Under the pieces are notes generated by a model. That model was not told the DNA's origin, searched no databases, and saw only the letters and a program-made list of their open reading frames with translations. A stretch of 64,000 bases of DNA, taken from positions 15,559-79,558 of the forward strand of contig CALWJV010000006.1 in NCBI GenBank assembly GCA_944381115.1, given 5' to 3'. Each line of letters starts with the position of its first letter. The first letter of the stretch is position 1. Source of the stretch: an uncultured Clostridia bacterium (GTDB lineage: Bacteria; Bacillota; Clostridia; Oscillospirales; CAG-272). Shown one piece after another: positions 3,411 to 62,785 of this stretch. A program made the position numbers and the translations under genes.

Positions 3411-3445
3411 TAATATTAAAAATTTTTGAAAGAGACGGTAAATAT

Positions 3446-10305: not shown

Positions 10306-10334
10306 TTTAATTTTTACTTAAGGAGAGAAAAAAT

Positions 10335-10553
10335 ATGAAAGCACGTATAGAACTCAACACAATGACTGATGTTACGGACTTCGTTGCAATAGTATCCGCT
10401 GTTCCCGGTCAGGTATACCTTTCTGACGGTAAACATCAGCAGATCTGCGCAAAATCTCAACTCGGTGCCATTCTTGCAAAAATGGAGTGGGATGAAATAT
10501 ACTGTATTTCCGACGAAGATATAAGTGGAAGCATTGTTCGTTTCATAGTTTAA
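10335..10553 (+). CDS. Small HPr-like protein lacking the His15 motif
   Basis: 72 aa, AAGGAG RBS, ICAKSQLG resembles the HPr Ser46 motif; pattern of short clostridial HPr-family proteins. Confidence 0.65.
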   Translation: MKARIELNTMTDVTDFVAIVSAVPGQVYLSDGKHQQICAKSQLGAILAKMEWDEIYCISDEDISGSIVRFIV

Positions 10554-10568
10554 CGTTTCATAGTTTAA
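10539..10568 (+). repeat. Perfect 15-bp tandem duplication spanning a stop codon
   Basis: CGTTTCATAGTTTAA twice in tandem. Confidence 0.9.
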
Positions 10569-10814
10569 TTTAAATAATTTAAAAATATAATTTGTAAACC
10601 GCTCCTGCCATTTAAATGTAACAGAGGAAAATCACTGTCACATTTATAATTTTTTAAAAAATGTCTGATGATTAATTTACGGATAGATAATCAGGCGGTT
10701 ATATTATTCAACGGCTACTTGTCGTCGGGGGTCAGTGGCTTAATAAATTTTTCAGGCAAATCTTTACTGCTCTATAAAATAGTTTAAAACTTTGCAAAAA
10801 GACAAAATTAAAGT

Positions 10815-10854
10815 AAAAGGGTATGTTTTAAAAACAGAAACATACTCTTTTTTT
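10815..10854 (+). terminator. Rho-independent terminator
   Basis: AAAAGGGTATGTTT...AAACATACTCTTTT plus T-tract. Confidence 0.7.
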
Positions 10855-10913
10855 GTATAATTTTATATCGACTGAATTACCTGTTTTTTTTTATCCGTAC
10901 TTGTCAAAAACAC

Positions 10914-10942
10914 TTGACTTTAAATATAATTTAGTGTATAAT
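10914..10942 (+). promoter_or_regulatory. Sigma-A promoter
   Basis: TTGACT-17 bp-TATAAT upstream of CDS 10996. Confidence 0.7.
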
Positions 10943-10995
10943 GTAATTAATATACAAATTTTTGTTTAACCAATAAATATACAAAGGAGAGTAAA

Positions 10996-12045
10996 ATGGC
11001 TAAGAAAAAAACTCCTTCTCCGATAAGATTTTATACTTCGCTGATTGAGCAGATAAAAACCAATAAAGTTGCCTTTGCTGTTTTTTTGGTATTAAGACTT
11101 GCGGTAATTTTGGTAATAATTCGCTGTATTGTAGATAAACGGTATGAAAGTATTTTCACAGCTGGACTTGCCCTTATCCTATTTTTAATACCCCCGTTTG
11201 TTGAAAAAAATTTTAAAATAGAACTTCCGACTGTTTTGGAAACACTTGCTTATATATTTATTTTTTGTGCTGAAATATTCGGAGAAATCAGCGGATTTTA
11301 TCAAAAATTTGCCTTTTGGGATACAATGTTACATGTGACAAACGGATTTATATTTGCAGCCGTCGGCTTTTGTCTTATAGATATAATAAACCAAAATCCC
11401 AAAATCAAATTCCGGACTTCTCCCGTATATGTTGCTATCACTGCTTTTTGTTTTTCGATGACAATAGGTGTTTTTTGGGAATTTTTTGAATTTGCCGCTG
11501 ACAGAACACTTTTAATCGATATGCAAAAAGACAGAATAATCAACTCTTTTTCTTCTTTAACTCATCCAATTGATGGTCAAATTATAGAAAACATTACAAA
11601 AACAACAATTGAATACGGCAATGGACAGATAGCGATCATCGAAAGAGGGTACCTCGACATAGGTCTTATTGATACAATTAAAGATATGTTCGTCAATTTC
11701 ATAGGAGCCGTTGTTTTCAGTGTTATAGGATATTTTTATATAAAGCACAGAGGTAAAGGTAAGATAGCAAAACAATTTATTCCGGTACTTATGCATAAAG
11801 ATAACAAAAACGATGAACTCCCGGACGAAAACCCAGATATAGACAAATATATAGCGGAAAAGTCCGCCGATGAAAATATTTCATCTGAAAACAATGTTTC
11901 AGACATACAATCAGAAAGCCCTGATTATGACAATTCTGAAGATATACCATGTGATAATGAAAAAGGCGCTGTTGATAAAGACTCTCAAATTCAAAATGAA
12001 AATACAGATTCCGAAGATTGCAGTGAAAATAGCAATAATTCTTAA
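10996..12045 (+). CDS. Integral membrane protein (YjdF/DUF2238-like) with acidic C-terminal tail
   Basis: Several TM helices, WDTMLH, WEFFEF, DTIKD motifs; last ~80 aa D/E/N/S-rich; AAAGGAG RBS. Confidence 0.7.
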   Translation: MAKKKTPSPIRFYTSLIEQIKTNKVAFAVFLVLRLAVILVIIRCIVDKRYESIFTAGLALILFLIPPFVEKNFKIELPTVLETLAYIFIFCAEIFGEISGFYQKFAFWDTMLHVTNGFIFAAVGFCLIDIINQNPKIKFRTSPVYVAITAFCFSMTIGVFWEFFEFAADRTLLIDMQKDRIINSFSSLTHPIDGQIIENITKTTIEYGNGQIAIIERGYLDIGLIDTIKDMFVNFIGAVVFSVIGYFYIKHRGKGKIAKQFIPVLMHKDNKNDELPDENPDIDKYIAEKSADENISSENNVSDIQSESPDYDNSEDIPCDNEKGAVDKDSQIQNENTDSEDCSENSNNS

Positions 12046-12055
12046 TACAATATTT

Positions 12056-12094
12056 AAAATAAAGCGGATCGCTCAACGCGATCCGCTTTATTTT
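12056..12094. terminator. Bidirectional Rho-independent terminator
   Basis: Perfect 17-bp inverted repeat AAAATAAAGCGGATCGC/GCGATCCGCTTTATTTT between convergent genes. Confidence 0.85.
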
Positions 12095-12195
12095 ATTTGA
12101 CTGTCACCCAATCATTATCAACCTTTTAAACTTTTCAAGATATTTCGGTACGTATTCAATTATAAATATCTGTATTTTTGATTACTTATAACTTT

Positions 12196-13518
12196 CTAAC
12201 CTGTTTTTTCTGAATTTTCCGGATACCCGCCGGTCTTAAGAATTATCTCCGGCTTTGCCTTATTATTAACGGTATCATCGGTTATAATAACCTTCTCAAC
12301 ATCATTTCTTGAAGGTATCTCGTACATAATATCGAGCATTGTCTCTTCAATTATCGCCCGCAAACCGCGCGCTCCTGTGTTTCTTTCAATAGACTTTTCC
12401 GAAATAGCTTTAAGTGCACTGTCAGTAAATTCAAGGTCTACTTTATCAAGACTGAACAGTTTCTTATATTGTTTTACAAGTGAATTTTTAGGCTCTATCA
12501 GTATCCTGATCAATGCATTCTCATCAAGGCTGTCAAGACTTACTATTATCGGCAGACGACCGACAAGTTCAGGTATCAGTCCGAATTTTACCACATCTTG
12601 TGGTATTACATCTTTATAAGGCGAATTTGAAAGTTTTTCCGCTTTTGTCATTATTGTACTGTTAAATCCAATGGCAGATCCGCCTTTACGCGTCTCAACT
12701 ATATCCTGAATCGTATCAAATGCTCCGCCGCATATAAACAGTATATTTTCAGTATTTATTCTTATAAATTCCTGATTCGGGTGCTTTCTTCCCCCCTGCG
12801 GAGGAACATTTGCAACCGTACCCTCAAGTATTTTAAGAAGTGCCTGCTGTACTCCTTCACCGGAAACATCTCTGGTAATAGATCGGTTTTCGGAACGTCT
12901 TGAAATCTTGTCTATTTCGTCGATATATATGATTCCCATTTCGGCAAGTTCTATATTATAGTCTGCCGCCTGAATAAGTCTTAAAAGTATATTTTCAACA
13001 TCTTCTCCGACATACCCTGCTTCGGTCAGCGTTGTAGCATCTGCTATTGCAAACGGTACTTTTAACGTTTTGGCAAGAGTCTGAGCAAGATAGGTCTTCC
13101 CCACTCCTGTGGGGCCGAGAAGAAGAACATTGCTCTTTTGAATTTCCACATCGTCACTGTTCCTCTTTTTATTACCTGTTTTTTTGCTGCCAAATGAAGT
13201 TGAAGGGCTTTGTAAAATCCTTTTATAGTGATTGTAAACTGCTACGGAAAGCGCTTTTTTCGCATCTTCCTGACCTATTACATAATCATCAAGTATCTTC
13301 TTTATTGTCTTGGGTCTCGGAAGTGTTTCGTAATTCAATGCGGAAACATTTCCGCTTACTTCTACCTCACTTATAATTTCATTACAGGTTTCTACACAGT
13401 TATTGCATATATAAAGACCTGTCGGGGATGGGATCAAAAAATTTACCTGATGCTCATTTCTTCCGCAAAAAATGCAATGCCTTGCAGACGAATTTCCTGG
13501 TGTACGATTATTTGCCAT
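12196..13518 (-). CDS. clpX: ATP-dependent Clp protease ATP-binding subunit ClpX
   Basis: N-terminal CxxC zinc finger, [36 protein letters not shown] loop. Confidence 0.98.
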
Positions 13519-49258: not shown

Positions 49259-49300
49259 AAAAAAGTCCCCGGAAAGAAAAATTTTCCGGAGACTTTTTTT
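49259..49300. terminator. Bidirectional Rho-independent terminator
   Basis: AAAAAAGTCCCCGGAAA...TTTCCGGAGACTTTTTT between clpC and azlD. Confidence 0.75.
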
Positions 49301-49613
49301 AAATCAGATACATCATTACAAATTCAACAATAAAAACTACCGAACACGATGCAATCGCTACTTTAAAAAGACCTGCACCGAACCATGCAAGCACTACTCC
49401 GACTATCAGCGCTATCGCACCGGAAACCGGAGATTGCGTCGCTTCAATAATTGCCGGAAATGTCATTACCGACAAAGTAACATAAGGAACATAATATAAA
49501 AAAGACTTTAAAAACCTGTTTTTTATCTGTCTGCGTATAAGAACAATGGGAAGCATTCTGATAAGATAGGTAACACTTGCCATAATCAAAATATAAATGT
49601 ATATTTTGAGCAT
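49299..49613 (-). CDS. azlD: AzlD-family branched-chain amino acid transport protein
   Basis: VTYLIRMLP, FLYYVPY; small hydrophobic; 1-bp overlap with azlC. Confidence 0.85.
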   Translation of the reverse strand: MLKIYIYILIMASVTYLIRMLPIVLIRRQIKNRFLKSFLYYVPYVTLSVMTFPAIIEATQSPVSGAIALIVGVVLAWFGAGLFKVAIASCSVVFIVEFVMMYLI

Positions 49614-50356
49614 TATTTTACTTCCTCCGTTTCTTCATCATCTTTTCGGGGAAATAAAATTGCCGCAAAAGCAGAAACAAATATCGTAAGTATGATCGTC
49701 ACTGTGCCGTCGGTGAGTCCCCAAGAATCGGGAACATACCTCGATGCATAACTTAAAACAAAACATATAATAATAATGCCTGATATAACTTTGTTTTTTC
49801 TTGCAGGAGGAATTATTATCGCCAGAAACATTCCGTAAAGAGCAACGCTCAATGCACTTACTATGCTTGTCGGTAACCATGTACCGGCAAGGGCGCCTAT
49901 GACCGTACCCAAAGCCCACAAAGGAACAGCGGTAAACGCCGCTCCGTATATGTAGTACGGGTTTAAAAATCCGTCCCTTGCCATTGTGATACCAAAGATC
50001 TCATCGGTCACAAAGTAACTGCTGAAAAATCTGTGAGAAAGTTTTTCTTCTGGTGAAAATTTCTGACTGAGGGCACAACTCATAAGCATGTATCTTGCAT
50101 TTATGACAAATGTCATTATAGCAACTTCAAGATATGCTGCATTTTTTGATATAAGATCAAACCCGGCATACTCGCCTGCAGATGCAATACACAGCAGGCT
50201 TGCCAAAAACGACTGAAAAACGGAAAGTCCGGAATTTTTTGCCATTATACCGAGGGCAAACGATACCGCAAGATACCCAAGTCCTATCGGCACGGCATCT
50301 CTCATCCCTTCCGCAAATACCTTTTTGCGTCCTTTTTTTATGTCCAAAAGGTCCAT
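49613..50356 (-). CDS. azlC: AzlC-family branched-chain amino acid permease
   Basis: PIGLGYLAVSF, INARYMLMS, VTDEIF; ATG 50356 preferred over TTG 50377. Confidence 0.88.
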   Translation of the reverse strand: MDLLDIKKGRKKVFAEGMRDAVPIGLGYLAVSFALGIMAKNSGLSVFQSFLASLLCIASAGEYAGFDLISKNAAYLEVAIMTFVINARYMLMSCALSQKFSPEEKLSHRFFSSYFVTDEIFGITMARDGFLNPYYIYGAAFTAVPLWALGTVIGALAGTWLPTSIVSALSVALYGMFLAIIIPPARKNKVISGIIIICFVLSYASRYVPDSWGLTDGTVTIILTIFVSAFAAILFPRKDDEETEEVK

Positions 50357-50525
50357 TTCCTTGCTCCAATTCAACAATTTAATCCGATGTATTCAGGCGG
50401 TAACTTTATGCCCTTGAAAAAAATTTCAAAGGGCATTTTATTGCTTTACACGAGAAGGCGAATATAATTTTATACTCTAATGTATTTAAAAATTACTTCT
50501 TTTTTTGAAATTTTACAATTTTTAA

Positions 50526-51341
50526 TTATGTAGCGGCTATTCCGAAAACCTTCGCGGCATTGTACCCGAGAAGTTTTTTGTATTCTTCCTCGGAAAAGCC
50601 GAGAGACATGAGTTTTGAAAGTTCTTCCGATGCATCCCACATCGGATAATCGGTAGCAAACATAACTCTGTCTATTCCGAACGCCATAATATATTCTTTC
50701 ACTTTCTCATTTGGCAAAAACGGGAAAGACGATGAACAGTCGACATAAAGATTTTCAAATTTCGGAAGTTTCTTTGTTGCTTCTTCCCAGACCGACCAGC
50801 CTCCGAGGTGAGCGCCTATTATAATAAGGTCCGGAAAACTTTTAAGTACCGGGATAAGTTGATCGGGGTTGGAATTGTTGTACCTATAATCACCCGTGTG
50901 CATCAGTATCGGAAGTCCGTGATTTTCGCAAAGCTCGTATATCTTCATACACTTTTTGTCGTCTATTCTGAAATTCTGAATATCGGGGTGGAGTTTTACG
51001 CCGTGAAGCGAAAGTTCGCACAGGTGATCAAAATCGCCTTCAATATCGGCGCTGTCGGGATGAAGCGTACCGAGTCCGGTGAGTTTTCCTTTGTACTCTG
51101 CTTCCTCTTTTGCGATAAATTCATTGATGCTTTTTACCTGCTTCGGTACCGAGGCGACGGATTGTACCACAAAATGGTCGATCCCGACCTTTGTACCCTC
51201 TTTGACCATGTCTCCTGCAATTCCGTTTTTCAGCGAATGAAGGCCGTAAAATGTATTTGTACCGTTAACGGCTCTTTCCGCTATTTTTTCCGGATAGATA
51301 TGACAGTGCGCATCCACCGTAAAAAATTTATTTTGATACAT
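50526..51341 (-). CDS. Amidohydrolase-2 family metal-dependent hydrolase
   Basis: DAHCH, GVKLHP, MHTGD, AHLGG, FATDYP; TAATG overlap with upstream gene. Confidence 0.88.
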   Translation of the reverse strand: MYQNKFFTVDAHCHIYPEKIAERAVNGTNTFYGLHSLKNGIAGDMVKEGTKVGIDHFVVQSVASVPKQVKSINEFIAKEEAEYKGKLTGLGTLHPDSADIEGDFDHLCELSLHGVKLHPDIQNFRIDDKKCMKIYELCENHGLPILMHTGDYRYNNSNPDQLIPVLKSFPDLIIIGAHLGGWSVWEEATKKLPKFENLYVDCSSSFPFLPNEKVKEYIMAFGIDRVMFATDYPMWDASEELSKLMSLGFSEEEYKKLLGYNAAKVFGIAAT

Positions 51342-53860
51342 TATGCCGTCACCACTTTTGCTGCTTTTTGGAGTCCGAGTTTTTCAATAGCTTCCTCACG
51401 CATTTTATACTTAAGGATCTTTCCGGCTACATTCATCGGAAACTCCTTTACAAAGTCTATATATTTCGGTACTTTATGCCTTGCCATATGGGCATTGATA
51501 TATTCTTTCATCTCCTCGGAGGTCATGGTCTCACCGTCTTTCAGAATTATACAAGCCATTATCTCTTCACCGTACTGCTCATCGGGAACGCCTATTACCT
51601 GAACGTCCTTTACCTTCGGATGGGTATAGATGAACTCCTCTATTTCCTTCGGGTAAATATTCTCACCGCCGCGGATAATCATGTCTTTGAGACGACCGGT
51701 GATACGGTAGTTTCCTTCTTTCGTGCGGCAGGCAAGGTCTCCGGTATGGAGCCAGCCATCCTTGTCAATCGCGGAGGCGGTCGCCTTGGGCATCTTGTAG
51801 TATCCCTTCATTATGTTATAACCTCTTGCAACAAACTCGCCAGTGACCTCATCCGGACACTCTTCTCCCGTTTCTGGGTCAACTATCTTACATTCGATCT
51901 CAGGGAGCGCGCGTCCGACGGTTCCGACTCTGACTTCAATCGGGTCATCTGTCGAACTCATAGTACATCCGGGAGATGCCTCCGTCTGACCGTAAACTAT
52001 CGTTATTTCGTCCATGTGCATCTTCTTTATAACATCGCGCATAACGGAAATCGGGCAGGGGCTTCCAGCCATAATACCGGTACGCATATGCGAAAAATCG
52101 GTCTTTGCAAAGTCCTCATGTTCAAGAAGTGCAATAAACATCGTGGGAACTCCGTGGAATGCGGTTATCCTCTCGGCGTTTATACATGCAAGCGCCGGTT
52201 TCGGTGCGTAATACGGGAGCGGGAGGAGTGTAACTCCGTGTGTCATACTTGCGGTCATGGCAAGGACCATTCCGAAACAGTGGAACATCGGGACCTGTAT
52301 CATCATTCTGTCCGCGGTGGAAAGATCCATTCTGTCTCCGATACATTTACCGTTATTTACGACATTGTAATGAGTAAGCATAACGCCCTTGGGGAATCCC
52401 GTGGTTCCGGAAGTATACTGCATATTGCATACGTCATCCTTATCAACGGCGTCTGCTCTTCTGTATACCTCTTCGACCGGTACCATATCCGCCCTTGCTA
52501 TCGTCTCTTCCCATGTCAGACAGCCCTTTTGTTTAAATCCTACGGTAATTACGTTGCGGAGGAAAGGCAGACGGCGGCTGTGAAGAGGCGTTCCAGGTTT
52601 TGTATTTGCGAGTTCTGGACAAAGTTCTGCAATGATCTCAGAGTAATTTGAATCACGGTAACCGTCGATCATGACAAGCGTATGAGTATCTGACTGCTTC
52701 AAAAGGTATTCGGCCTCGTGAATCTTATATGCGGTGTTCATTGTGACGAGAACTGCTCCTATTTTCGTTACCGCCCAGAATGCTATATACCACTGAGGTA
52801 TATTCGTTGCCCAGACCGCTACGTGGTCTCCGGGCTTTACGTTAAGAGAGATAAGACTGCGGGCGAAAGTATCGACGTCCTTGCGGAACTCATAGTATGT
52901 TCTTGTATAGTCAAGCGTCGTGTACTTGAATGCAAGTTTATCGGGAAATTCCTCTACCATACGGTCAAGTACCTTCGGGAAGGTCAGATCGATCAGCATT
53001 TCCTTTTTCCAGATATATCTGCCGGTGTGGGCTTTGTTGTAATAAAGCGAGCTATCCGACTTTGAGGTGTCGCTGAACTGGCTCATAAAGTTTTCAAACT
53101 GTGACAGTACTATTTCGAGGTCATCGATCTCTTCGCACCATTTCGGATCCCATTCAAGTGAGATAAAGCCGTTATAGTTGACCGAACGCAGTGCGCAGAT
53201 AAGTTCGTTTATCGGGAGACTTCCCTCCCCCACAAGGCAATAATTTATGCCTTTATCAGTCTTTTCGGCATCCTTTATATGAATGTGCTTTACGTAAGCG
53301 CCAAGAGTTTCGATCGTGGTCTCGGGAGACTGTTCCGCTATAAAACAAGTGGAATAAACATCCCACAGTGCGGAAAGGCTGTCACTTGCAAAACTGTCGA
53401 GCATGTCGCGCAATTTTTTTGCGTCACTGAACAGTCCGCTTGTTTCAAGAAGGATGTCTACCCCTGCGTTTTCCGCTATGGGGAGTATTTGGGAAAGGAA
53501 TCCACGCACTGTATCAAAATCGTTTTCTCCGTGGGAGGACGCATGTACTCTTATATAAGGTATATGAAGGTTTTCGGCGATCTTTATGCACTCTTTGAGT
53601 TCTTCCATTGCCTCTTCGGACTTTTCCGTATCGGCGGGATCGCATATGCTGTCTATGCACGGAATGCTGAGTTTCATCTCATAAAGTCTTCTGAGCGTTG
53701 CGGCGGTCGCGTATTCATTGAATGCGCTATCACTGCTTGTAAAGAGTTTGTTTTTTATATTGTGAAGTTCTATTCCGGAAAAGCGAAGATCTTTTGCTAT
53801 ATCGCAAAACTGCTCAAAACTTTTTCCGTGCCAACCCTTTGTTGAAAATGAAAGTTTCAT
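51341..53860 (-). CDS. Fusion: xylose isomerase-like TIM barrel plus AMP-forming acyl-CoA synthetase
   Basis: aa ~1-260: LLET, WD, HIHIKD, SLEW; C-terminal part: YTSGTTGFPKG, YGQTE, GWLHTGD, GRLKDMIIRGGEN, GKILK. Confidence 0.9.
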   Translation of the reverse strand: MKLSFSTKGWHGKSFEQFCDIAKDLRFSGIELHNIKNKLFTSSDSAFNEYATAATLRRLYEMKLSIPCIDSICDPADTEKSEEAMEELKECIKIAENLHIPYIRVHASSHGENDFDTVRGFLSQILPIAENAGVDILLETSGLFSDAKKLRDMLDSFASDSLSALWDVYSTCFIAEQSPETTIETLGAYVKHIHIKDAEKTDKGINYCLVGEGSLPINELICALRSVNYNGFISLEWDPKWCEEIDDLEIVLSQFENFMSQFSDTSKSDSSLYYNKAHTGRYIWKKEMLIDLTFPKVLDRMVEEFPDKLAFKYTTLDYTRTYYEFRKDVDTFARSLISLNVKPGDHVAVWATNIPQWYIAFWAVTKIGAVLVTMNTAYKIHEAEYLLKQSDTHTLVMIDGYRDSNYSEIIAELCPELANTKPGTPLHSRRLPFLRNVITVGFKQKGCLTWEETIARADMVPVEEVYRRADAVDKDDVCNMQYTSGTTGFPKGVMLTHYNVVNNGKCIGDRMDLSTADRMMIQVPMFHCFGMVLAMTASMTHGVTLLPLPYYAPKPALACINAERITAFHGVPTMFIALLEHEDFAKTDFSHMRTGIMAGSPCPISVMRDVIKKMHMDEITIVYGQTEASPGCTMSSTDDPIEVRVGTVGRALPEIECKIVDPETGEECPDEVTGEFVARGYNIMKGYYKMPKATASAIDKDGWLHTGDLACRTKEGNYRITGRLKDMIIRGGENIYPKEIEEFIYTHPKVKDVQVIGVPDEQYGEEIMACIILKDGETMTSEEMKEYINAHMARHKVPKYIDFVKEFPMNVAGKILKYKMREEAIEKLGLQKAAKVVTA

Positions 53861-55248
53861 TTTGTTTTCTCCTCATACACTGTTTTGTTTACCGCATTGA
53901 TATAAGCCTTTATTGATGCTTCCATTATATCGGTGGAAATGCCGTTTCCGGAGTAAACCTTACCGTCGTTACGGAGTTTTACCAAAGCATATCCCATGGC
54001 TTCCTGTCCTTCAGTTACCGACTGTATCTGGAAATCGTCCAGTTCGAAACGGCGTCCTATTATCTGACTGAGCGTCTTAAATGAGGCGTCTATCGGGCCG
54101 TCTCCTGTTGAGATTCCGCTTATATATTTTCCGTCTTTTTCAAGTTTTATCTGAGCGGACGAATCAATTATATTACCGTTATTTATAAGGTAACTTACGA
54201 GTTTGTACGTCGGCGGTACTTGAAGCGCAACACTCGATACTATCGCATCAAGATCCTTTGCAGTTATCTTTTTCTTCTCCGCAACACGTTTGAACTCCTC
54301 ATAAACTCTTTTAAGATCGTCATCCGAAAGGTCGTATCCGAGTTTCTTTACGGCGTCAAAAATACTTTCCTCGCTGTCGTGTACATCGAATACATTTACA
54401 TTGTCGGAAATTTCGATCTTAGTAGATGCGTTAACTTTCTTACCGCCTTCAATCCACTCTATCTGATTTACACTGCGGTTAAGTATATTGTAATTTATAC
54501 CGGAGAAAAGCCCGCATCTTTCTCCGCAACCGAAAAGTATCTTTGCAAAATCGTCAAGTCCGGTGATATCCTTTTTGCCTACACAGCATTTTATTTCATC
54601 AACACTGGCCTTTGCCGCCATGACTGCGGAAGCGCTTGCCATACCGTTCGTGTTTTTACATACCACGCCGACAGTAACTTTTTCAAGTTCCGGTATGTTT
54701 GTATAAGTATCTTTTATAAAAGCGGCAAATTCGTCTGGAAGCATTGCGCCTTCGTCATCGCAAAGGGTTACGGCTTTTACTCCCGCGTCTATTGCGCCGA
54801 TTACCATTTCACGAAGGAATGCACTGTCGGCGCGTGTTGCGTCTTCGGCATAAAACTCCACATTTTCGCATTTTGCCGTTGCCGCGGCAAAAATCTCTTT
54901 TGCAAAAATCACCATTTTTGCCGGTTTTTTATGATAAACATACTCCATCTGTATCGAGGAAACAGGGAGCCTTACTGCCATACGGGCATTTTTCGAGCCG
55001 GATATCGCGGCGGCGGCGGCATCTATGCTTTCCGTGCTGCTTCCTGATTCTACACAGAGGGCACTGTTTTTTATAAATGCGGAAACTGTACGTATAAGAA
55101 GCGAATCCGCTTTTGTATTCTCTATCTTCGGCATATATATAACATCAACATTAAGGTTATCAAGGCATCTTGCGACCTCAATCTTTTCTTTAAATGATAA
55201 TGTCGGATAGACTGTAAGAGTCATATCAGAAATTATAATCTTTTTCAC
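53857..55248 (-). CDS. LeuA (2-isopropylmalate synthase)-like protein with degenerate catalytic domain and intact regulatory domain
   Basis: VEFYAEDATRAD and LPDEF recognisable; GDGPIDA and STDIMEASIKAYINA retained; DRE and HxH motifs absent; GTG start after GAAAGG. Confidence 0.85.
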   Translation of the reverse strand: MKKIIISDMTLTVYPTLSFKEKIEVARCLDNLNVDVIYMPKIENTKADSLLIRTVSAFIKNSALCVESGSSTESIDAAAAAISGSKNARMAVRLPVSSIQMEYVYHKKPAKMVIFAKEIFAAATAKCENVEFYAEDATRADSAFLREMVIGAIDAGVKAVTLCDDEGAMLPDEFAAFIKDTYTNIPELEKVTVGVVCKNTNGMASASAVMAAKASVDEIKCCVGKKDITGLDDFAKILFGCGERCGLFSGINYNILNRSVNQIEWIEGGKKVNASTKIEISDNVNVFDVHDSEESIFDAVKKLGYDLSDDDLKRVYEEFKRVAEKKKITAKDLDAIVSSVALQVPPTYKLVSYLINNGNIIDSSAQIKLEKDGKYISGISTGDGPIDASFKTLSQIIGRRFELDDFQIQSVTEGQEAMGYALVKLRNDGKVYSGNGISTDIMEASIKAYINAVNKTVYEEKTK

Positions 55249-55277: not shown

Positions 55278-55560
55278 AAAAAAAGCCCCCGAAGCCATAA
55301 TGGCTTCAGGGGCGAATTTATCCGTGTTACCACCCTGTTTACCGCAAAATACGGTCACTCTGTGAGGCTCTGACAAGCCTTTTGCCTTGATAACGGAGCA
55401 ATCCGGAATCTCTTAATGAACCATGCTTGTACGGCAAAACAGGTCTGTTCGGAGATTCTGCTCGGGAATGAGACTTTATCCGTCTTCCGCATATCGGACT
55501 TACACCAAATGCCGACTCTCTGTGACGCTTTCAAACGGAAAATAATTCCTTCTTAGCATT
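55278..55560 (-). ncRNA. T-box riboswitch, probable Leu specifier (CUC)
   Basis: Stem I with AGAGA and GGUG, specifier CUC-A at 55472-55469 before closing UUCC, CCGUUAUC box, T-box AGGGUGGUAACACG (55336-55323), terminator hairpin 55278-55313 with U-tract. Confidence 0.9.
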
Positions 55561-55583: not shown

Positions 55584-55612
55584 ATTATACCACAAAGAAA
55601 GACACTTTTCAA
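55584..55612 (-). promoter_or_regulatory. Sigma-A promoter of the Leu T-box operon
   Basis: Minus strand TTGAAA-17 bp-TATAAT with TG extension. Confidence 0.7.
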
Positions 55613-55662: not shown

Positions 55663-56727
55663 TTACTTTATCGGGACTGTCCAGCCGTACTTATCTTCAA
55701 TCTTACCCCACTGGATTCCGGTAAGAGTATCATAAAGATGAGAGGTTACCTCTCCGATCTTTCCGTCGTTGATTATGTACTTGACATCTTTATAGCAGAG
55801 TTCGCCAATAGGAGAAACAACAGCCGCCGTTCCGGTTCCCCATGCCTCTTCGAGTTTGCCGTCTGCAAGAGCCTTACCGATCTCATCGATGCTTATGCGT
55901 CTTTCGCTGACTTTATATCCTTCTGCTCTGAGAATTTCGAGGCACGACTTTCTTGTTATACCGGGAAGTATGGATCCGGTAAGTTGAGGAGTTACGACCT
56001 CGCCGTCGATCTTAAACATTACGTTCATTGCACCGACCTCTTCGATATATTTACGTTCTACACCGTCAAGCCAGAGTACCTGAGAATAACCCTTTTCTTC
56101 CGCCTTTTCGCCTGCACGGTTACTTGCGGCATAGTTACCTCCGCACTTTGCTTCTCCGGTACCGCCTCTTACGGCTCTGACGTCTTCCGCTTCTATCATG
56201 ATCTTAACGGGGTTTATACCCTCTTTATAATAACTTCCGACGGGAGATGTGATGATCATAAATGTTGCATGCTTTACGGAATGAACTCCGAGAGTCTCGT
56301 CGTTTCCGAACATAAACGGACGGATGTAAAGCGATGTTCCGGGTGCAGAAGGTACCCAATCTTGCTCGAATTTAATAAATTCGGTAAGAATTTGCATTGC
56401 GGTATCTTCCGGTATCTGCGGAAGGCAGAGACGCTCTGCGGAACGGTTCATCCTGCGTATGTTTTCCATCGGTCTGAAAAGTTGAACACTTCCATCGGAC
56501 TTTCTATACGCTTTGAGACCTTCGAAGACCTCGGAGCCGTAATGAAGTGCCGTACATGCGGGATGAAGTTCTATCTTTCCGAACGGAACTATTCTTGCAT
56601 CATGCCAGCCTTTTTCGGGATTATATTCCATAATGAACATATGATCGGTAAAATATTTACCGAATCCGAGTACAGAAGCCTCGGGCTTTACCGCCGGAGC
56701 GGTCGTTTTTGTTATTTTGATTTCCAT
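55663..56727 (-). CDS. ilvE: Branched-chain amino acid aminotransferase
   Basis: FGKYFTDHM, FEGLKAY, LYIRPF, AKCGGNYA (PLP Lys), EEVGAMN, ILPGITR. Confidence 0.96.
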   Translation of the reverse strand: MEIKITKTTAPAVKPEASVLGFGKYFTDHMFIMEYNPEKGWHDARIVPFGKIELHPACTALHYGSEVFEGLKAYRKSDGSVQLFRPMENIRRMNRSAERLCLPQIPEDTAMQILTEFIKFEQDWVPSAPGTSLYIRPFMFGNDETLGVHSVKHATFMIITSPVGSYYKEGINPVKIMIEAEDVRAVRGGTGEAKCGGNYAASNRAGEKAEEKGYSQVLWLDGVERKYIEEVGAMNVMFKIDGEVVTPQLTGSILPGITRKSCLEILRAEGYKVSERRISIDEIGKALADGKLEEAWGTGTAAVVSPIGELCYKDVKYIINDGKIGEVTSHLYDTLTGIQWGKIEDKYGWTVPIK

Positions 56728-56904: not shown

Positions 56905-57450
56905 TCAGTTTTCTTTATAGTTTTTTCCGAGGATCATTGCACTTAGATTGGTTTCGAGCATATCGATATGTCTTGCCGAAATTACTTTTTTCAGTGCGGC
57001 ATCAACTGCTTCCTTGTCGTCAAACTCTCCGTTCTCCTTAAGAACTTTACCCATAATGATCATGTTTGCAAGAGTAGGAATATTGTTATCCGACGCCATC
57101 TGTGTTGCTGGAATATAGAAAACGTTTACATCCGCTCTCTTTACCTTGCGATCTATAAGTGTTGAATCAACATAGATCGTTCCACCGGGAACGACGCTGT
57201 CCTCGTATCTGTCAAGTGACGGAAGGTTCATTGCGATAAGTACATCTGGTTTTGAAACTATCGGAGAACCGACCGGTATGTCGCTTATAATAACGCTACA
57301 ACTTGCGGTTCCTCCTCTCATTTCGGGTCCGTATGAAGGAAGCCAACTTACATTCGCACCGTCTATAAGGCCTTTATAAGCAAGGAATTTTCCTGCAAAC
57401 AGAATTCCCTGACCGCCGAATCCGGCGATAAGATACTGTGTTGTTTTCAT
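56905..57450 (-). CDS. 2-oxoacid:ferredoxin oxidoreductase gamma subunit
   Basis: [17 protein letters not shown]; ATG 57450 after AAGGAG. Confidence 0.93.
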
Positions 57451-57463
57451 TGTATTTTCCTCC

Positions 57464-58207
57464 TTATTTCTGTGCAGATCTGTCCTTATATACACCAAGA
57501 GGGTAATAAGGAATCATTTTTTCATCGATCCACTTGAGAGCCTTTTCCGGAGTAAGTCCCCAGTTAGTCGGACAACTTGAAATTACTTCAACAAAGGAAA
57601 ATCCCTTTCCGTTTACCTGGTTTTCAAAAGCCTTCTTTATGGCCTTTTTTGCATTTTTTATGTTCTTAACATTATTTACGGCAACACGCTCAATGTACTC
57701 GGGACCGTCAAGTTGCGAAAGCATCTCACAGACCTTTATCGGGTAACCGCAGAGGTTTACGTCTCTTCCGTAAGGAGATGTCTGCGTGACCTGTCCGGGA
57801 AGGGATGTAGGAGCCATCTGTCCGCCTGTCATACCGTATATTGCGTTATTAATAAATATAATAGTAATATTTTCATTTCTTGCGGCGGAGTGGACCGTTT
57901 CTGCCATACCTATGGAAGCCAGGTCTCCGTCACCCTGATATGTAAATACTATGTTCTCGGGGTCGGAACGTTTTACACCTGTTGCAACTGCCGGAGCACG
58001 TCCGTGAGCCGCTTCTATCATATCACAGTTAAAATAATCATATGCCATAACAGAACAGCCGACAGGTGCTATTCCGATCGTTCTGCCTTCTATTCCGAGT
58101 TCATCGATTACCTCGGCAACAAGACGGTGGATTATACCGTGTGTACATCCGGGACAGTAATGAAACGGTACGTCGGAAAGAGCATGCGGTTTATCAAATA
58201 CTACCAT
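57464..58207 (-). CDS. 2-oxoacid:ferredoxin oxidoreductase beta subunit (TPP-binding)
   Basis: YCPGCTHG, HGRAPAVATG, GDGD...NN TPP motif, YGMTGGQ, CPTNW. Confidence 0.93.
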   Translation of the reverse strand: MVVFDKPHALSDVPFHYCPGCTHGIIHRLVAEVIDELGIEGRTIGIAPVGCSVMAYDYFNCDMIEAAHGRAPAVATGVKRSDPENIVFTYQGDGDLASIGMAETVHSAARNENITIIFINNAIYGMTGGQMAPTSLPGQVTQTSPYGRDVNLCGYPIKVCEMLSQLDGPEYIERVAVNNVKNIKNAKKAIKKAFENQVNGKGFSFVEVISSCPTNWGLTPEKALKWIDEKMIPYYPLGVYKDRSAQK

Positions 58208-59274
58208 TAGTTATTACCTCCTTTTTCCGCCGCGGCTTCTATTGCGGCAAGTACCTGCTCCGGAGACGGTATCATACCTCCAGTACGGTTGCAAAGCGTT
58301 ACATCCGCTTTTCCGTTTACGGCAAGTTTTATGTCTTCGATCATCTGACCCATCGAAAGTTCAACGGATATAAACGTTTTTGCTTTTTCTGCCGCTTTTG
58401 CAATTTGCTTTTCTGGGAACGGCCAAAGCGTTATAGGTCTGATCATACCCGCTTTAATACCTTTTTTGCGTGCCTCGTTAATAGCGTTCTTGGAAACACG
58501 AGCAGCAATACCGAATGCTACAATGCAGATCTCCGCATCTTCCATAAGATAATCTTCATATCTGACTTCGTTCTGCTTTATTGTCTCGTAACGCTGATAG
58601 CGATCATAGTTTGTTTTTTCAAGAATTTCGGGTTTGAGGAAGAGAGAGTTTATTATGTTATGCTTTCTCTGCATCTTAGTTCCAGTGACCGCCCATGGTT
58701 TTTCTATGCTCTTTTCTACCGGAATGTCAAGGGAAACAGGCTCCATCATCTGTCCCATCGTTCCATCTGCAAGGATCATAGAAGTCATGCGGTATTTATC
58801 CGCAAGTTCAAATCCTTTGACGGTAAGTTCCGCCATTTCCTGAACGGAAGCAGGGGCAAGAACAATCATATGGAAATCTCCGTGAGCTCCACCCTTTGTT
58901 GCCTGGAAGTAGTCGGACTGCGAGGGCTGAATACCCCCGAGTCCCGGCCCGCCTCTCTGAACATTTATGACAAGTGCCGGAAGATCGGCTCCTGCCAGAT
59001 ATGACAAGCCTTCTCCTTTAAGAGATATTCCGGGACTGCTTGAAGATGTCATTACACGCTTGCCCGTTGAGGATACGCCGTATACCATGTTAATCGCTGC
59101 GATCTCGCTCTCGGCTTGAAGAAATACTCCGCCTATTTTAGGCATTCTTTTTGCCATGTAAGCAGCAATCTCGGTCTGAGGTGTTATCGGATAGCCGAAA
59201 TAATGTCTGCATCCTGCGATGATAGCCGCTTCGGCAATCGCTTCGTTACCTTTCATTAAAACCTTATCTGCCAT
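58207..59274 (-). CDS. vorB: 2-ketoisovalerate:ferredoxin oxidoreductase alpha-type subunit (VorB family)
   Basis: GYPITPQTE, QAESEIAAINM, TSSSSPGISL, RGGPGLG, QSDYFQATKGG. Confidence 0.88.
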   Translation of the reverse strand: MADKVLMKGNEAIAEAAIIAGCRHYFGYPITPQTEIAAYMAKRMPKIGGVFLQAESEIAAINMVYGVSSTGKRVMTSSSSPGISLKGEGLSYLAGADLPALVINVQRGGPGLGGIQPSQSDYFQATKGGAHGDFHMIVLAPASVQEMAELTVKGFELADKYRMTSMILADGTMGQMMEPVSLDIPVEKSIEKPWAVTGTKMQRKHNIINSLFLKPEILEKTNYDRYQRYETIKQNEVRYEDYLMEDAEICIVAFGIAARVSKNAINEARKKGIKAGMIRPITLWPFPEKQIAKAAEKAKTFISVELSMGQMIEDIKLAVNGKADVTLCNRTGGMIPSPEQVLAAIEAAAEKGGNN

Positions 59275-59283
59275 TTTAAAGTC

Positions 59284-59490
59284 CTACCTTTCTACCTTGA
59301 TTATACAGTCAGGACACATCGTAGCACAGAATGCGCAGCCAATGCATGCGACCTCGTTTACTGCTTCTACTGGGTGATGTCCTTTTTGATTGATTTTGTC
59401 GGCGGCAAGTGCAAGTACGCCTTTTGGGCAGACGCCTACGCAAAGACCGCATCCCTTACAATTGTCGGTTTTAAATGTCAGTTTTGCCAT
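59284..59490 (-). CDS. 2[4Fe-4S] ferredoxin (oxidoreductase delta subunit)
   Basis: Two CxxCxxCxxxCP motifs. Confidence 0.93.
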   Translation of the reverse strand: MAKLTFKTDNCKGCGLCVGVCPKGVLALAADKINQKGHHPVEAVNEVACIGCAFCATMCPDCIIKVER

Positions 59491-59504: not shown

Positions 59505-60164
59505 TTACATATATTTTTGCAAATTTATCGGATATAAATTTTTTATCTTTCCTTCAAGTTCCGGCAGAAGTTTTTTATACACTGTTGTATAAGCTATCGG
59601 AAGACCCGTTCTTTTTGCGACCTCTTCTACAAACGGTACTGATAAAAGAACTGTATTCGTGTCTGTCTCTTTGCCTAAATTGGAGTTATTTATGATAGAG
59701 GTAAATTTTAGTCTGCACGCCTGTTCTATCTCCGTCATGACCTCTATGGCACTTTCAGGAGTACTTGTAAGCGGTCTGTATTTATTTACCACATATATCA
59801 TTTCGTAATTGTTTTCCTGCTGTATCTTCGGAACCAGTCTTCCCAGAGCCAAAGCACCCCGCTCGTCTCCTCCAACGTCAAGTATACTGTAAAGCGTCTT
59901 GTCATCGGTAACAGCATACATCTCCTGAGGGAGCGCCGGAATATCAACATTGCTGTTAGCATATTTTGAGCAGATCAGCCGTATACCGTTTTTATTCAGT
60001 AGATCTTCGCTGTCCTTTGTACGGAAATACGGATTGACTATATCGATGTCCGCTATCGCGGTATTTTCGTGTTGTTTTTTTAGATCGAGTGAAAGGGATA
60101 CGGCAATATTTGTCTTACCGCTTCCGTAATGTCCCGATATTATAGTAATTCGTTTGAAATCCAT
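59505..60164 (-). CDS. P-loop ATPase (MinD/ParA/CobQ-like) associated with vor genes
   Basis: GHYGSGKTN, DIDIVNPYFRT, LDVGGD; ATG 60164 after GAGG. Confidence 0.85.
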   Translation of the reverse strand: MDFKRITIISGHYGSGKTNIAVSLSLDLKKQHENTAIADIDIVNPYFRTKDSEDLLNKNGIRLICSKYANSNVDIPALPQEMYAVTDDKTLYSILDVGGDERGALALGRLVPKIQQENNYEMIYVVNKYRPLTSTPESAIEVMTEIEQACRLKFTSIINNSNLGKETDTNTVLLSVPFVEEVAKRTGLPIAYTTVYKKLLPELEGKIKNLYPINLQKYM

Positions 60165-60178
60165 CGCGTTGCCTCTTA

Positions 60179-62464
60179 TCAAAGTTTGTTACGCTGGATC
60201 TTTCCGCTTGTCGTTTTGGGAAGTTCATCTCTGAAAACAACTATTCTCGGGTATTTGTAAGGAGCAGTATGAGTTTTTACGTAATCCTGTATCTCTTTTT
60301 TAAGCGCTTCGGACGGCTCGGTTCCTTTTACAAGAACGACGCTTGCCTTGACGACCTGTCCTCTTACCTCATCAGGAGCGGCGGAAACACCGCATTCGAG
60401 AACATAAGGAAGTTCCATAATAACGCTTTCTATCTCAAACGGACCTATGCGGTAACCGGAAGACTTTATAACGTCGTCAACACGTCCGACATACCAGTAG
60501 AATCCGTCCTCATCGCGCCATGCAACGTCTCCGGTGTGGTAGTAACCGTCGTGGCGTACCTCAGCGGTCTTTTCCGGGTCGTTGTAGTACTCGGTAAACA
60601 GTCCGCATGGAGAGCCGTTGGCAATATTTACAACTATCTCTCCGGACTCACCGACTGCCGCAGGCTTTCCTTCAGGAGTAAGAAGTTCAACATCGTATAT
60701 CGGTGCCGGCTTACCCATGGAACCTATTTTATGCGGAGCACCTGTCAGGTTTCCTATGATCATTGTACTTTCCGACTGACCGAATCCTTCAAGGATCTGA
60801 AGTCCCGTCGCCTTTTCAAACTGTCTGTAAACCTCCGGGTTGAGCGCTTCTCCCGCCGTCGTCATATGCTTAATGGAAGAAAGATCGTATTTTGAGATAT
60901 CTTCCTTTATCATCATACGGAGCATCGTGGGTGGTGCGCAGAATGTCGTGATATTGTATTTTGCAAACATCGGAAGTATATCCGCTGCGTTGAAGCGATC
61001 GAAATCGTATACGAACGTTGCCGCTTCGCAGAGCCACTGACCGTAAAATTTACCCCACATGGCCTTTGCCCATCCAGTATCGGATATGGTAAAGTGGAGC
61101 CCGTCCGGGCAGACGTTGTGCCAATATTTTGCAGTGTGGAAATGACCAAGCGCATATTTATAATTATGAACTGCAATCTTCGGGTATCCCGTCGTTCCCG
61201 AGGTAAAGAACATGAGCATAGTGTCGTCGCCGCCGGGAGTCTGTTCAGTACGTTCGAAATGCGTACTGAAAAGTTCGCATTCTTCGTCAAAATTTCTCCA
61301 ACCTTCGCGGTTTCCGCTGACTATCAGTTTATATACAAGTGTCGGGCATTTATCCGCAACAAAGTCGACCTGCTCGGCAGCGATTCCGTTTCCTGCGCAG
61401 ATTATGGCTTTTACTCCCGCCTTGTTGAAACGATATTCGTAGTCATGAGAAAGAAGTTGATTCATTGCGGGGATCGCAATAGCACCTATCCTGTTAAGCC
61501 CCAAAACAGCATACCAAAACTGATAGTGACGTCCGAGTACCAGCATGACTTTGTCGCCTTTTTTTATACCGAGCGATTTGAAATAGTTGGCCGCCCTGCA
61601 TGAAAGCCTTTTCATATCTTTGAATGTGAATCGAGTCTCCTTTTTATCGGCAGATATATGGAGCATCGCAAGTTTATCTGGTGATTTTTTTGCAATTTCA
61701 TCTATAATATCAAAGGCAAAATTGAATTTTTCAATATTTTTGAATTTAATGGATATCGGGGTACCGTTTTCGTTTTCAACTACATCGACAAACTTTTTGT
61801 ATACACGGTCCTCGGTGTCCTTGCTTACCGACGCTTGTGACTTTGATACCGGTGCTTCAAGTTCCGCATCCGGCTCTCCCGCCGGGTTAAGGACCATCGC
61901 GTAAAAGTAACAATCCTCTCCTCCAATGGCTATCATTCCGTGTGGCGTTGCACTGTCGTAGTAAATAGTATCGCCCGCTCCGAGAATCTCGCTGTGATCC
62001 CCTATCTGCACCTTAAGATGTCCTTTTATAACTATATCGCATTCCTGACCTTCGTGAGTCGTAAGTTCTATTGGCTTTTCCTGAGCCTCTTTGCTGTATT
62101 CACTGCAAACGTACAAAGGCTCGGCTATCCTGTTTTTAAACGAGGGTGCAAGGTTGTAATAAGTCATACCATGCGCCTGTTCGATCTTTTGTCCGCCGCC
62201 GCTTCTTGTAAGCGTATAGGACATCAGTTTCGGGCTTTGTCCCGCTATGATATCAGTAACGTCGACGTTAAAAGCGGCCGCACAACGGTATATAAAAGCA
62301 AAATTAAGATCGGAGTGACCGTTCTCGCATTCTATGTACTCCTGCTCGCTGACATCAGTCTTTACAGCCATCTCGGCCGTACTGAGCCCTTCTATCTCAC
62401 GGAGTTCTTTTATTCTCTCCGCCATTTCCCTGATCTTCAAATCAAGTCCTGTTGCATTTTTCAT
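60179..62464 (-). CDS. Fusion: XRE HTH-cupin plus medium-chain acyl-CoA synthetase
   Basis: RIKELRE...ENG HTH, cupin HEGQE/YYDSATPHGM, then FTSGTTGYPK, DTGWAKAMWGKFYGQW, GFGQSE, YYHTGD, PKTTSGK; ATG 62464 after GGAAAGG. Confidence 0.92.
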   Translation of the reverse strand: MKNATGLDLKIREMAERIKELREIEGLSTAEMAVKTDVSEQEYIECENGHSDLNFAFIYRCAAAFNVDVTDIIAGQSPKLMSYTLTRSGGGQKIEQAHGMTYYNLAPSFKNRIAEPLYVCSEYSKEAQEKPIELTTHEGQECDIVIKGHLKVQIGDHSEILGAGDTIYYDSATPHGMIAIGGEDCYFYAMVLNPAGEPDAELEAPVSKSQASVSKDTEDRVYKKFVDVVENENGTPISIKFKNIEKFNFAFDIIDEIAKKSPDKLAMLHISADKKETRFTFKDMKRLSCRAANYFKSLGIKKGDKVMLVLGRHYQFWYAVLGLNRIGAIAIPAMNQLLSHDYEYRFNKAGVKAIICAGNGIAAEQVDFVADKCPTLVYKLIVSGNREGWRNFDEECELFSTHFERTEQTPGGDDTMLMFFTSGTTGYPKIAVHNYKYALGHFHTAKYWHNVCPDGLHFTISDTGWAKAMWGKFYGQWLCEAATFVYDFDRFNAADILPMFAKYNITTFCAPPTMLRMMIKEDISKYDLSSIKHMTTAGEALNPEVYRQFEKATGLQILEGFGQSESTMIIGNLTGAPHKIGSMGKPAPIYDVELLTPEGKPAAVGESGEIVVNIANGSPCGLFTEYYNDPEKTAEVRHDGYYHTGDVAWRDEDGFYWYVGRVDDVIKSSGYRIGPFEIESVIMELPYVLECGVSAAPDEVRGQVVKASVVLVKGTEPSEALKKEIQDYVKTHTAPYKYPRIVVFRDELPKTTSGKIQRNKL

Positions 62465-62498
62465 AATACATTTCCTTTCCATTTTATGGGAAGCAGAC

Positions 62499-62775
62499 AA
62501 AAAGCCCGTCCCAAAGATTTTCTTTGAGACGAGCCTGAAATTCAAACCCGCGGTACCACTCAAATTGCAGTATAGACTGCCTCCTCAGGGTCAATAAACC
62601 CTTTCGCACTTACGCGGCTGTCACGGGGAGGGTCTACGGAAAATTCTTTCTTCCTCCCGGCTCGGAAGTTACAAACTTCAAGATCTCGTTTAACGGCTTT
62701 CACCATAAAACCCCGTAGAGTTTAATACCGTCTCTCTGCAAAACTACGTTCTCAAGTCCTCTTCGTCAACGCCTT
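62499..62775 (-). ncRNA. T-box riboswitch, probable Val specifier (GUA)
   Basis: Stem I with AGAGA and GGUGAAA, specifier GUA-A at 62672-62669 before closing CUUC, T-box UUGAGUGGUACCGCG (62563-62549), terminator GCUCGUCUCAAAGA/UCUUUGGGACGGGC plus U-tract. Confidence 0.9.
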
Positions 62776-62785
62776 TAATACCAAC

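Follow-up and report, generated by a model that had tools for sequence, protein, structure and literature searches.

The 64,000-nucleotide window analysed here, running from position 15,559 to 79,558 of contig CALWJV010000006.1 in the uncultured Clostridia bacterium assembly GCA_944381115.1, encodes at 51341..53860 an 839-amino-acid protein in which a xylose-isomerase-like TIM barrel is followed by an acyl-coenzyme A (acyl-CoA) ligase. A first-pass annotation of the DNA had reported it as one open reading frame and named no strand; the single frame is confirmed and is on the minus strand, as are all the features of the window given below. The gene is the middle member of a trio that follows a T-box leader with a leucine specifier, and the first member of the trio encodes a LeuA-like protein, called pseudo-LeuA in what follows. 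The ligase is a candidate for activating isovalerate on a route to leucine, and the barrel to which it is fused belongs to a class in which the metal site appears to have been lost repeatedly.

The fusion protein and its coupled neighbors

The protein consists of a complete ligase of the ANL superfamily joined by a short linker to an AP_endonuc_2 barrel. Pfam places AP_endonuc_2 (PF01261) on residues 20-238 with 88.5 bits against a cut-off of 31.1, AMP-binding (PF00501) on residues 299-688 with 314.6 bits against a gathering score of 29.9, and AMP-binding_C (PF13193) on residues 739-814 with 66.6 bits against a gathering score of 24.5. The barrel domain, delimited from Pfam, AlphaFold2 and a fold search, is taken as residues 1-262 (53075..53860), and the ligase part, delimited from Pfam, as residues 272-839 together with the stop codon (51341..53047). 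Between them is a linker of about 10 residues (263-271; 53048..53074) of low model confidence, the predicted local distance difference test score (pLDDT) of the AlphaFold2 models being below 50 at residues 265-270. It is at residue 272-293 that the alignment of stand-alone ligases begins, these being ligases from related loci where the two halves are separate genes. Modeling of the full-length fusion gave a pLDDT of 84.8 and a predicted template modeling score (pTM) of 0.65, an output that is silent on how barrel and ligase pack.

ANL enzymes have in common a P-loop-like T/S-S-G-T-T-G-x-P-K, a YGxTE, a TGD, the hinge GR.KD and a C-terminal catalytic lysine. Their counterparts here are YTSGTTGFPKG (482-492), YGQTE (623-627), TGD (706-708), GRLKD..RGGENIYP (722-737, with the hinge GRLKD at 722-726), GK (813-814) and K817, and each of the core motifs is invariant or at least 90% conserved across 69 aligned relatives. 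With all core motifs found and both ligase domains over their gathering scores, the first-pass description of the ligase motifs as complete is upheld. Within the superfamily the ligase appears to be nearest the PRK12583/DmdB-like group, though under the cut-off of that subfamily. The best NCBIfam match of the fusion, PRK12583 (NF009233), covers residues 286-831 and reaches 705 bits of the 832 required, and among unfused Atlas clusters the closest goes by the name ‘3-methylmercaptopropionyl-CoA ligase family’ (score 0.94).

The T-box leader (RF00230; 55305..55563) scores 96.4 bits against a gathering score of 93 and aligns to model positions 1-219, its full length. Its specifier codon, as located from the T-box alignment, is CUC (Leu; 55470..55472) followed by A, and its core, GGTGGTAACACG, is at 55323..55334. 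An intrinsic terminator hairpin with a 13-base-pair stem, nine G-C pairs and a U-run (55285..55313) follows downstream and overlaps the 3′ side of the antiterminator. Control by a Leu T-box, which the earlier reading had presupposed, is therefore well founded, and with a CUC T-box and a terminator in place the inducing signal is likely to be uncharged tRNA-Leu. Further 5′, at 55584..55612, is a promoter-like site, recognized by consensus match only, in which TTGAAA and a TG-extended TATAAT are separated by a 17-nucleotide spacer and 11 of 12 consensus positions agree.

Pseudo-LeuA (463 amino acids; 53857..55248) is encoded directly upstream of the fusion, and its stop codon overlaps the start of the fusion in the sequence ATGA. 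At the other end the fusion stop overlaps, in TAATG, the start of a gene for a 271-amino-acid protein of the Amidohydro_2 metal hydrolase/decarboxylase family (50526..51341; 107.7 bits, Pfam). As far as gene layout goes, a translationally coupled trio under the Leu T-box is shown.

Pseudo-LeuA has the domain order of LeuA, an HMGL-like domain (95.7 bits), which is a degenerate barrel, and a LeuA_dimer regulatory domain (115.5 bits against 24.9, Pfam). Against the LeuA equivalogs it falls far short, with 267.6 bits for a cut-off of 532 (NF002086) and 233.7 for 598.7 (TIGR00973). When it is aligned to solved LeuA structures and to the true LeuA of a related genome, the RDGEQ motif (where there is also a deletion), the HxH histidine pair, the GERAGNA loop and the HESGIH segment are all missing: opposite LRDGDQ stands LTVYP, with a deletion, and opposite HCHND stands VCKNT. 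The catalytic arginine and aspartate, both metal histidines and two active-site loops are thus gone, and the consensus of the pseudo-LeuA family has the same losses with no histidine at the HxH positions. The LeuA_dimer domain, on the other hand, retains GDGPIDA, with G382, D383, G384, P385 and A388 invariant, and pairwise identity is 0.68 in the regulatory domain versus 0.39 in the N-terminal barrel. With the catalytic residues lost and the equivalog scores so low, the upstream protein is by its sequence a pseudoenzyme and not a LeuA enzyme, and its first-pass designation as a pseudo-LeuA was apt. Condensation of acetyl-CoA with a keto acid by this protein, as the opening step of a de novo route to isovaleryl-CoA, was considered and is ruled out by the absence of the catalytic residues and the two active-site loops.

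Split, class I and class II forms and the fate of the barrel

The fusion is a genuine protein, very common among gut bacteria. In a one-genome-per-species collection at least 592 of the 600 matched stretches listed encode relatives, and from these searches 80 related loci were retained. The best 120 protein clusters all combine PF01261, PF00501 and PF13193 in 832-844 amino acids and are 76-92% identical. Among 301 genomes sampled evenly across the source order (the order sample), 142 have a match to the barrel family, and 82 of the 147 matched places are in open frames of at least 800 amino acids (counted from the table); among 401 genomes sampled across the phylum the corresponding figure is 20 of 50, with several families outside the order represented. 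A check of domain architecture thus found the fusion not to be peculiar to this assembly, the same fusion occurring in many species, and an assembly or annotation artifact is ruled out by the 120 fused clusters, the 592 or more stretches and the 82 of 147 long open frames. One relative (L029, 141..2663) has an in-frame stop at codon 319, just past the joint, and was excluded from the alignment; the stop may reflect an error in sequencing, or the gene may have been broken recently or split secondarily.

The module occurs in three forms. Of the 12 loci fetched for a stand-alone barrel, 10 have the split form: a ligase gene is immediately upstream of the barrel gene on the same strand, sometimes overlapping it, so that the genes run ligase then barrel, opposite to the domains of the fusion. 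The split ligases share 55-62% identity with the ligase half of the fusion and the split barrels 28-33% with its barrel, and no LeuA-like gene is present in the split loci. Class I fusions are 60-65% identical overall to the window protein, and in all 12 fetched loci they have no adjoining pseudo-LeuA, no T-box core and only unrelated neighbors. Class II, the window type, has pseudo-LeuA directly upstream in 76 of the 80 related loci, the other four having no upstream DNA (76 of 76 evaluable), and likewise in a further 38 of 38 genomes drawn from the order sample. In that sample the two classes were divided by similarity to a stand-alone barrel, after which the 12 class I and 38 class II loci were checked directly. 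On a tree of the ligase half only, the division between the 12 rows of class I and the 69 of class II has 98% support in the Shimodaira-Hasegawa-like approximate likelihood ratio test (SH-aLRT).

Two further arrangements touch on these forms. At one class I locus (L129, G091:C35) two catalytically complete LeuA-family genes, of 519 and 524 amino acids (10116..13249, minus strand), are 0.7 kb upstream of the fusion; one of them exceeds the LeuA cut-off, and the arrangement might resemble the ancestor of the pseudo-LeuA pairing. The source genome itself has a further stand-alone xylose-isomerase-like barrel of 277 amino acids (L086, G000:C15:166523-167332), 26% identical to the fusion barrel, with no ligase beside it within 1.5-kb flanks.

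AlphaFold2 gives a confident (β/α)8 barrel for residues 1-285 of the fusion (pLDDT 92.7). Its matches among solved structures include Art22 (Z 28.9), IolI (27.3), AsbF (27.1), and UlaE and ketose 3-epimerases (about 26), the best being 9koj (Z 28.9, root-mean-square deviation 2.3, 248 residues aligned). Taken together the matches have Z of 25-29, root-mean-square deviations of 2.3-2.9 over 240-258 residues and sequence identities of 13-22%. The fold searches thus return generic xylose-isomerase-like barrels only, tied at that level, and no specific functional neighbor.

From the ketose 3-epimerases comes the definition of a Glu/Asp/His/Glu tetrad that serves in metal binding and catalysis, and active PF01261 members have in addition a substrate-binding histidine three residues past the metal aspartate. 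The window barrel has the tetrad as E139 (in ILLET), D167 (LWD), H194 (HIHIKD, which also contains D197) and E236 (SLEW), and has Ser170 where the histidine would be, both as noted at first pass. Position 170 is variable in class II, with His in 16, Ser in 12, Tyr in 12 and Ala in 10 among 69. The tetrad is complete in 5/5 split barrels, in most stand-alone representatives and in 12/12 class I fusions, all 12 of which also have His at position 170. Within class II it is complete in 40/69 and broken in 29/69, D167N accounting for 18/69 and E236V for 13/69, with other E236 changes besides. Mapped on the ligase-only tree, tetrad state changes 12 times inside class II, at least seven of the changes being forced by well-supported branches; the window barrel is in a small clade of four intact tetrads and one changed. 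Pairwise identity in class II fusions is 0.80 for the ligase versus 0.43 for the barrel, and at a matched ligase identity of about 0.80 the barrel identity is 0.42 in class II versus 0.61 in class I.

On these comparisons the class II barrel evolves much faster and its metal site appears to have been lost at least 7-12 times independently. With tetrads broken and barrel identity low in class II, the catalytic site of the barrel seems to be under relaxed constraint specifically where pseudo-LeuA accompanies the fusion. The barrel would then be an ancestral partner of this ligase subfamily, its catalytic site still intact in the split and class I forms, and in class II it probably plays a structural or regulatory part and is not essential as an enzyme. 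Of the two roles earlier suggested for it, an additional catalytic step cannot be essential to class II, where no more than 40 of 69 tetrads are complete, and is left a place in the window, whose copy retains the tetrad. The other, docking of pseudo-LeuA, cannot have been the original role, because split pairs and class I fusions exist without pseudo-LeuA.

A proposed role in leucine supply

That anaerobes of the rumen and gut depend on branched-chain volatile fatty acids, and make leucine from isovalerate, has been recognized since the 1960s. Labeling work in rumen bacteria brought to light a pathway by carboxylation of isovalerate, for which passages of PMC7356843 cite Allison et al. (1962, 1966). 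The fusion is probably a leucine-starvation-induced ligase for short or branched-chain acids that feeds such a synthesis, its most likely reaction being isovalerate to isovaleryl-CoA. The neighboring four-subunit 2-oxoacid:ferredoxin oxidoreductase (56905..59490) would then reductively carboxylate isovaleryl-CoA to 2-oxoisocaproate, and the branched-chain aminotransferase IlvE (55663..56727; NF009897, 482.5 bits against a cut-off of 307) would transaminate this to leucine in the last step. Isovalerate as the substrate, and a flux toward leucine, are what we infer from the context described next.

The oxidoreductase genes are, in order of transcription, delta (59284..59490, Fer4; matched by Fer4_7), alpha (58207..59274, POR_N and PFOR_II), beta (57464..58207, TPP_enzyme_C) and gamma (56905..57498, POR). 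At least one subunit is present in 32/80 related loci and IlvE is within the flank of 26/80; an oxidoreductase, IlvE or an HTH-cupin ligase of the kind described below is within 6 kb in 47/80. A gene for a CbiA/ParA-like P-loop protein (59505..60182), in the window between the oxidoreductase and the HTH-cupin ligase, is found in 30/80. The Amidohydro_2 protein at the other end of the trio has six metal or catalytic residues (H12, H14, H118, H148, H178 and D231) that are invariant in 41/41. It is found in 42/80 related loci, some of whose contigs are short, and its relatives in the Atlas and among solved structures, including the closest solved one, are uncharacterized only. AzlC (49613..50377) begins 148 nucleotides past it and is followed by AzlD (49299..49613), the two forming a transport pair for branched-chain amino acids. 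Transcription under the Leu T-box may extend through both, as the only strong terminator (49259..49299) stands after AzlD; no match to either was found among the 80 related loci, and the pair is therefore not a conserved part of the module.

The leucine specifier recurs across relatives. A T-box core is within 600 nucleotides upstream of the pseudo-LeuA gene in at least 43 of 66 evaluable loci, a lower bound as the first search pattern missed cores of the AGTGGTACC type for which a wider pattern was used later, and in 27 of the 38 loci from the order sample. The positional rule gives CUC as specifier in 39 of the 43 leaders; the other four were mis-anchored and are CUC by eye. Rfam places leaders over the gathering score in 4 of 10 related loci tested. 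CUC T-boxes are also directly ahead of the stand-alone ligase in three of ten split loci (L115, L116 and L121). In the source genome (1.80 Mb, 95.3% complete) no match to leuA, leuC or leuB exceeds the NCBIfam cut-offs. With canonical LeuA called as a TIGR00973 match at E≤1e-100 in the 301-genome order sample, none of 39 class II genomes has one, against 23/43 class I genomes and 99/301 overall. An anticorrelation between fusions as a whole and LeuA was looked for in this sample and not found, LeuA being present in 23/82 genomes with a fusion and 76/219 others; it appears for class II alone.

Paralogous ligases behind other T-boxes extend the pattern. At 60179..62563 the window has a fusion of HTH_XRE, Cupin_2 and an MbcS-like acyl-CoA synthetase (NF047394, 437 bits, below the 850-bit cut-off). 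It is preceded by a second T-box leader (62522..62778) with specifier GUA (Val), which at 69.9 bits is under the gathering score and has an E-value of 5e-15 for the region searched; its position implies that the 794-amino-acid reading frame is over-extended at its 5′ end and that the true start is downstream of 62522. Such paralogues in related loci follow T-boxes that the rule reads as AUC 17 times, GUA three times and GUC once, sometimes two in tandem. In the source genome about 10 kb past the window end, an AUC (Ile) T-box of 54.5 bits, under the gathering score, precedes another ligase paralogue (L083, G000:C6:88425-92966). Elsewhere in the same genome (L082, G000:C1:61492-65541) a UAC (Tyr) T-box at 3336..3662 on the minus strand, over the gathering score at 94.6 bits, precedes a 554-amino-acid AMP-binding ligase, followed by a metallophosphoesterase and RibF; this ligase may activate an aryl-acetate for tyrosine synthesis via reductive carboxylation. 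In the wider picture each of four amino acids (Val, Ile, Leu and Tyr) would have a T-box and a ligase of its own, which is in keeping with activation of an acid one carbon shorter than the 2-oxo acid of the amino acid, followed by reductive carboxylation and transamination. A T-box of a different kind is met at two loci (L122, 506..748; L123, 8808..9052), where a UGG (Trp) T-box is ahead of a PALP-family gene and a split ligase-barrel pair follows about 325 nucleotides later, so that the barrel-ligase module may not be tied to leucine in every lineage.

The earlier proposal of an isovalerate-CoA ligase thus fits its genomic context, given the adjacent oxidoreductase and IlvE, the lack of leuA, leuC and leuB matches and the paralogues with Val, Ile and Tyr T-boxes. 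Overall what the first-pass annotation observed has been confirmed and its interpretation is partly supported.

Several points weigh against a ligase that supplies leucine from isovalerate. With the strict first pattern no T-box core was found upstream of the pseudo-LeuA gene in 23/66 loci, and with Rfam at E≤0.01 no T-box was found there in L032, L050, L057 and L078. As the genomes compared are kin, the LeuA anticorrelation represents fewer independent events than its counts suggest and is an association, not a statistical test. Class I fusions, with neither T-box nor pseudo-LeuA and with unrelated neighbors, are in genomes that retain LeuA in 23 of 43 cases, and the substrate of the subfamily therefore need not be leucine-tied everywhere. 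PRK12583, the best NCBIfam model and one under its cut-off, is generically named, and the ligase has no close characterized relative; its best solved relatives span only residues 472-822 and have varied substrates. The strictly conserved Amidohydro_2 protein has no place in a simple three-step pathway, and the full tetrad of the window barrel leaves room for a catalytic role here. In addition, flux through the oxidoreductase and IlvE could just as well be catabolic.

That last point is shared by a rather unlikely alternative in which the ligase works as MbcS does, supplying isovaleryl-CoA chiefly to prime iso-branched fatty acids, or for some other use of the acyl-CoA, at times when there is too little leucine to be broken down for this, and not for leucine synthesis. 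A Leu T-box would be equally logical for the sparing of leucine, the adjacent oxidoreductase and IlvE can in principle work either way, and class I fusions are found in genomes that retain LeuA (23/43). Scavenging of branched acids for lipid primers also has a precedent in MbcS, as described in excerpts of PMC10026030. Set against this, the absence of a canonical LeuA match from all 39 class II genomes, and of leuA, leuB and leuC matches over cut-offs from the source genome, means that these organisms need a leucine source. The ligases behind Val, Ile and Tyr T-boxes likewise suit amino acid supply better, and for the tyrosine case there is no lipid rationale. Use as a lipid primer and leucine synthesis are not mutually exclusive.

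Also improbable is a multi-step cassette, in which the ligase would activate some other leucine-related acid (hydroxy, keto or dicarboxylic) that the barrel, as a dehydratase or isomerase, and the Amidohydro_2 protein, as a hydratase, decarboxylase or hydrolase, would remodel to isovaleryl-CoA or 2-oxoisocaproate. The pairing of barrel and ligase is ancient and exists in two independent arrangements, split ligase-barrel and fused barrel-ligase, and the fold relatives include dehydratases such as AsbF as well as keto-glucal hydratase. The intact tetrads of the 5/5 split barrels and of the window barrel, the intact tetrad and His170 of 12/12 class I fusions, and the invariance of the Amidohydro_2 metal ligands (41/41) all suit such chemistry, as does an Amidohydro_2 gene that follows the split pair in L116. 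It is in the Leu-regulated class II, however, that the tetrad is broken (29/69, with D167N in 18 and E236V in 13, in at least 7-12 independent events), and Amidohydro_2 is found in only 42 of 80 loci, though some contigs are short. Moreover no reductase or other required step is conserved in the cassette, and fold matches tied at Z 25-29 point to no specific chemistry.

A generic ligase for short- or medium-chain fatty acids, its T-box a lineage-specific accident with no special leucine link, would account for the generic NCBIfam names, the broad DmdB-like family of the nearest named unfused cluster and the T-box-free class I with its variable neighbors, but is highly improbable given CUC T-boxes that recur before fused and split forms in many species, a perfect linkage to a LeuA-derived protein (76/76 and 38/38) and 0/39 class II genomes with a canonical LeuA match.

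For the preferred reading, a leucine-supplying isovalerate-CoA ligase, there remains the part played by pseudo-LeuA. The regulatory domain of LeuA holds a leucine-binding pocket for feedback inhibition (excerpts of PMC12967937). As it is only this leucine-binding domain of pseudo-LeuA that stays well conserved, the protein may be a leucine sensor that throttles the ligase, a feedback inhibition of the first committed step. More speculatively, and as a possibility rather than an expectation, the LeuA regulatory domain could have been kept as a dead-enzyme subunit after loss of the textbook pathway and re-attached to a non-homologous isovalerate-CoA ligase, with its decaying barrel as docking surface; leucine allostery would then have been transplanted between pathways by two pseudoenzyme barrels, on top of the T-box control. 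If the sensor idea is true, the locus would show how allosteric regulation can pass to a replacement pathway.

Comparison with known systems

Two known kinds of element are represented here, the T-box-controlled supply operon and the ANL ligase. In the literature searched, outside of which are most subscription journals, no description was found of the fusion, the dead LeuA, the T-box wiring or a gene assignment for the isovalerate route. What is new comprises the distinction between split, class I and class II forms, the repeated and class-specific loss of the barrel metal site, the constant co-occurrence of pseudo-LeuA with the lack of a canonical LeuA match, the Leu T-boxes on split forms and the Tyr T-box ligase. 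The barrel can be viewed as a pseudoenzyme in the making, the repeated loss of its metal site being confined to operons that a dead LeuA has joined, in genomes where canonical LeuA is unmatched.

With the PRK12583 (NF009233)/DmdB-like synthetases the fusion shares the AMP-binding and AMP-binding_C layout and the core motifs; they lack the N-terminal barrel, and the fusion has in addition T-box control and a dead LeuA partner. MbcS of Staphylococcus aureus, as presented in excerpts of PMC10026030 and PMC11167679, has the job proposed here, which is to turn exogenous branched short-chain acids into CoA esters at the expense of ATP. It belongs to a different ligase subfamily, feeds lipid synthesis and is not known to have a barrel or a T-box. 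The MbcS-like match in the window is the HTH-cupin ligase at 60179..62563 and not the fusion.

The barrel has the fold and the E/D/H/E tetrad of ketose 3-epimerases, IolI, UlaE, the AsbF dehydratase and the Art22 isomerase. It differs from such xylose-isomerase-like enzymes in being fused to a ligase, in having Ser for His and in a tetrad that is degenerate in 29/69 close relatives. In petrobactin synthesis AsbF works beside an adenylating enzyme, and this offers a loose precedent for pairing a barrel with a ligase. Pseudo-LeuA shares with LeuA its domain order and a conserved LeuA_dimer including GDGPIDA, but is without the LeuA catalytic residues.

The leader has the layout of the Leu-specifier T-box leaders of Bacillota, with the same full length, CUC and terminator/antiterminator arrangement. 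Leu T-boxes usually act on genes for the synthetase or a transporter or on ilv-leu biosynthesis operons, and unlike these the target here is an acyl-CoA ligase cassette. The locus provides testable candidates in hundreds of uncultured species for a ligase, a tRNA-sensing switch and possibly a leucine-sensing subunit.

The closest parallel in physiology is the isovalerate carboxylation pathway. In the parts of the citing source that describe it, the classical work consists of labeling data without genes. For that 60-year-old observation the locus offers candidate genes and, possibly, a leucine sensor borne by a pseudoenzyme; a ligase, a 2-oxoacid:ferredoxin oxidoreductase and a transaminase are encoded side by side in the window.

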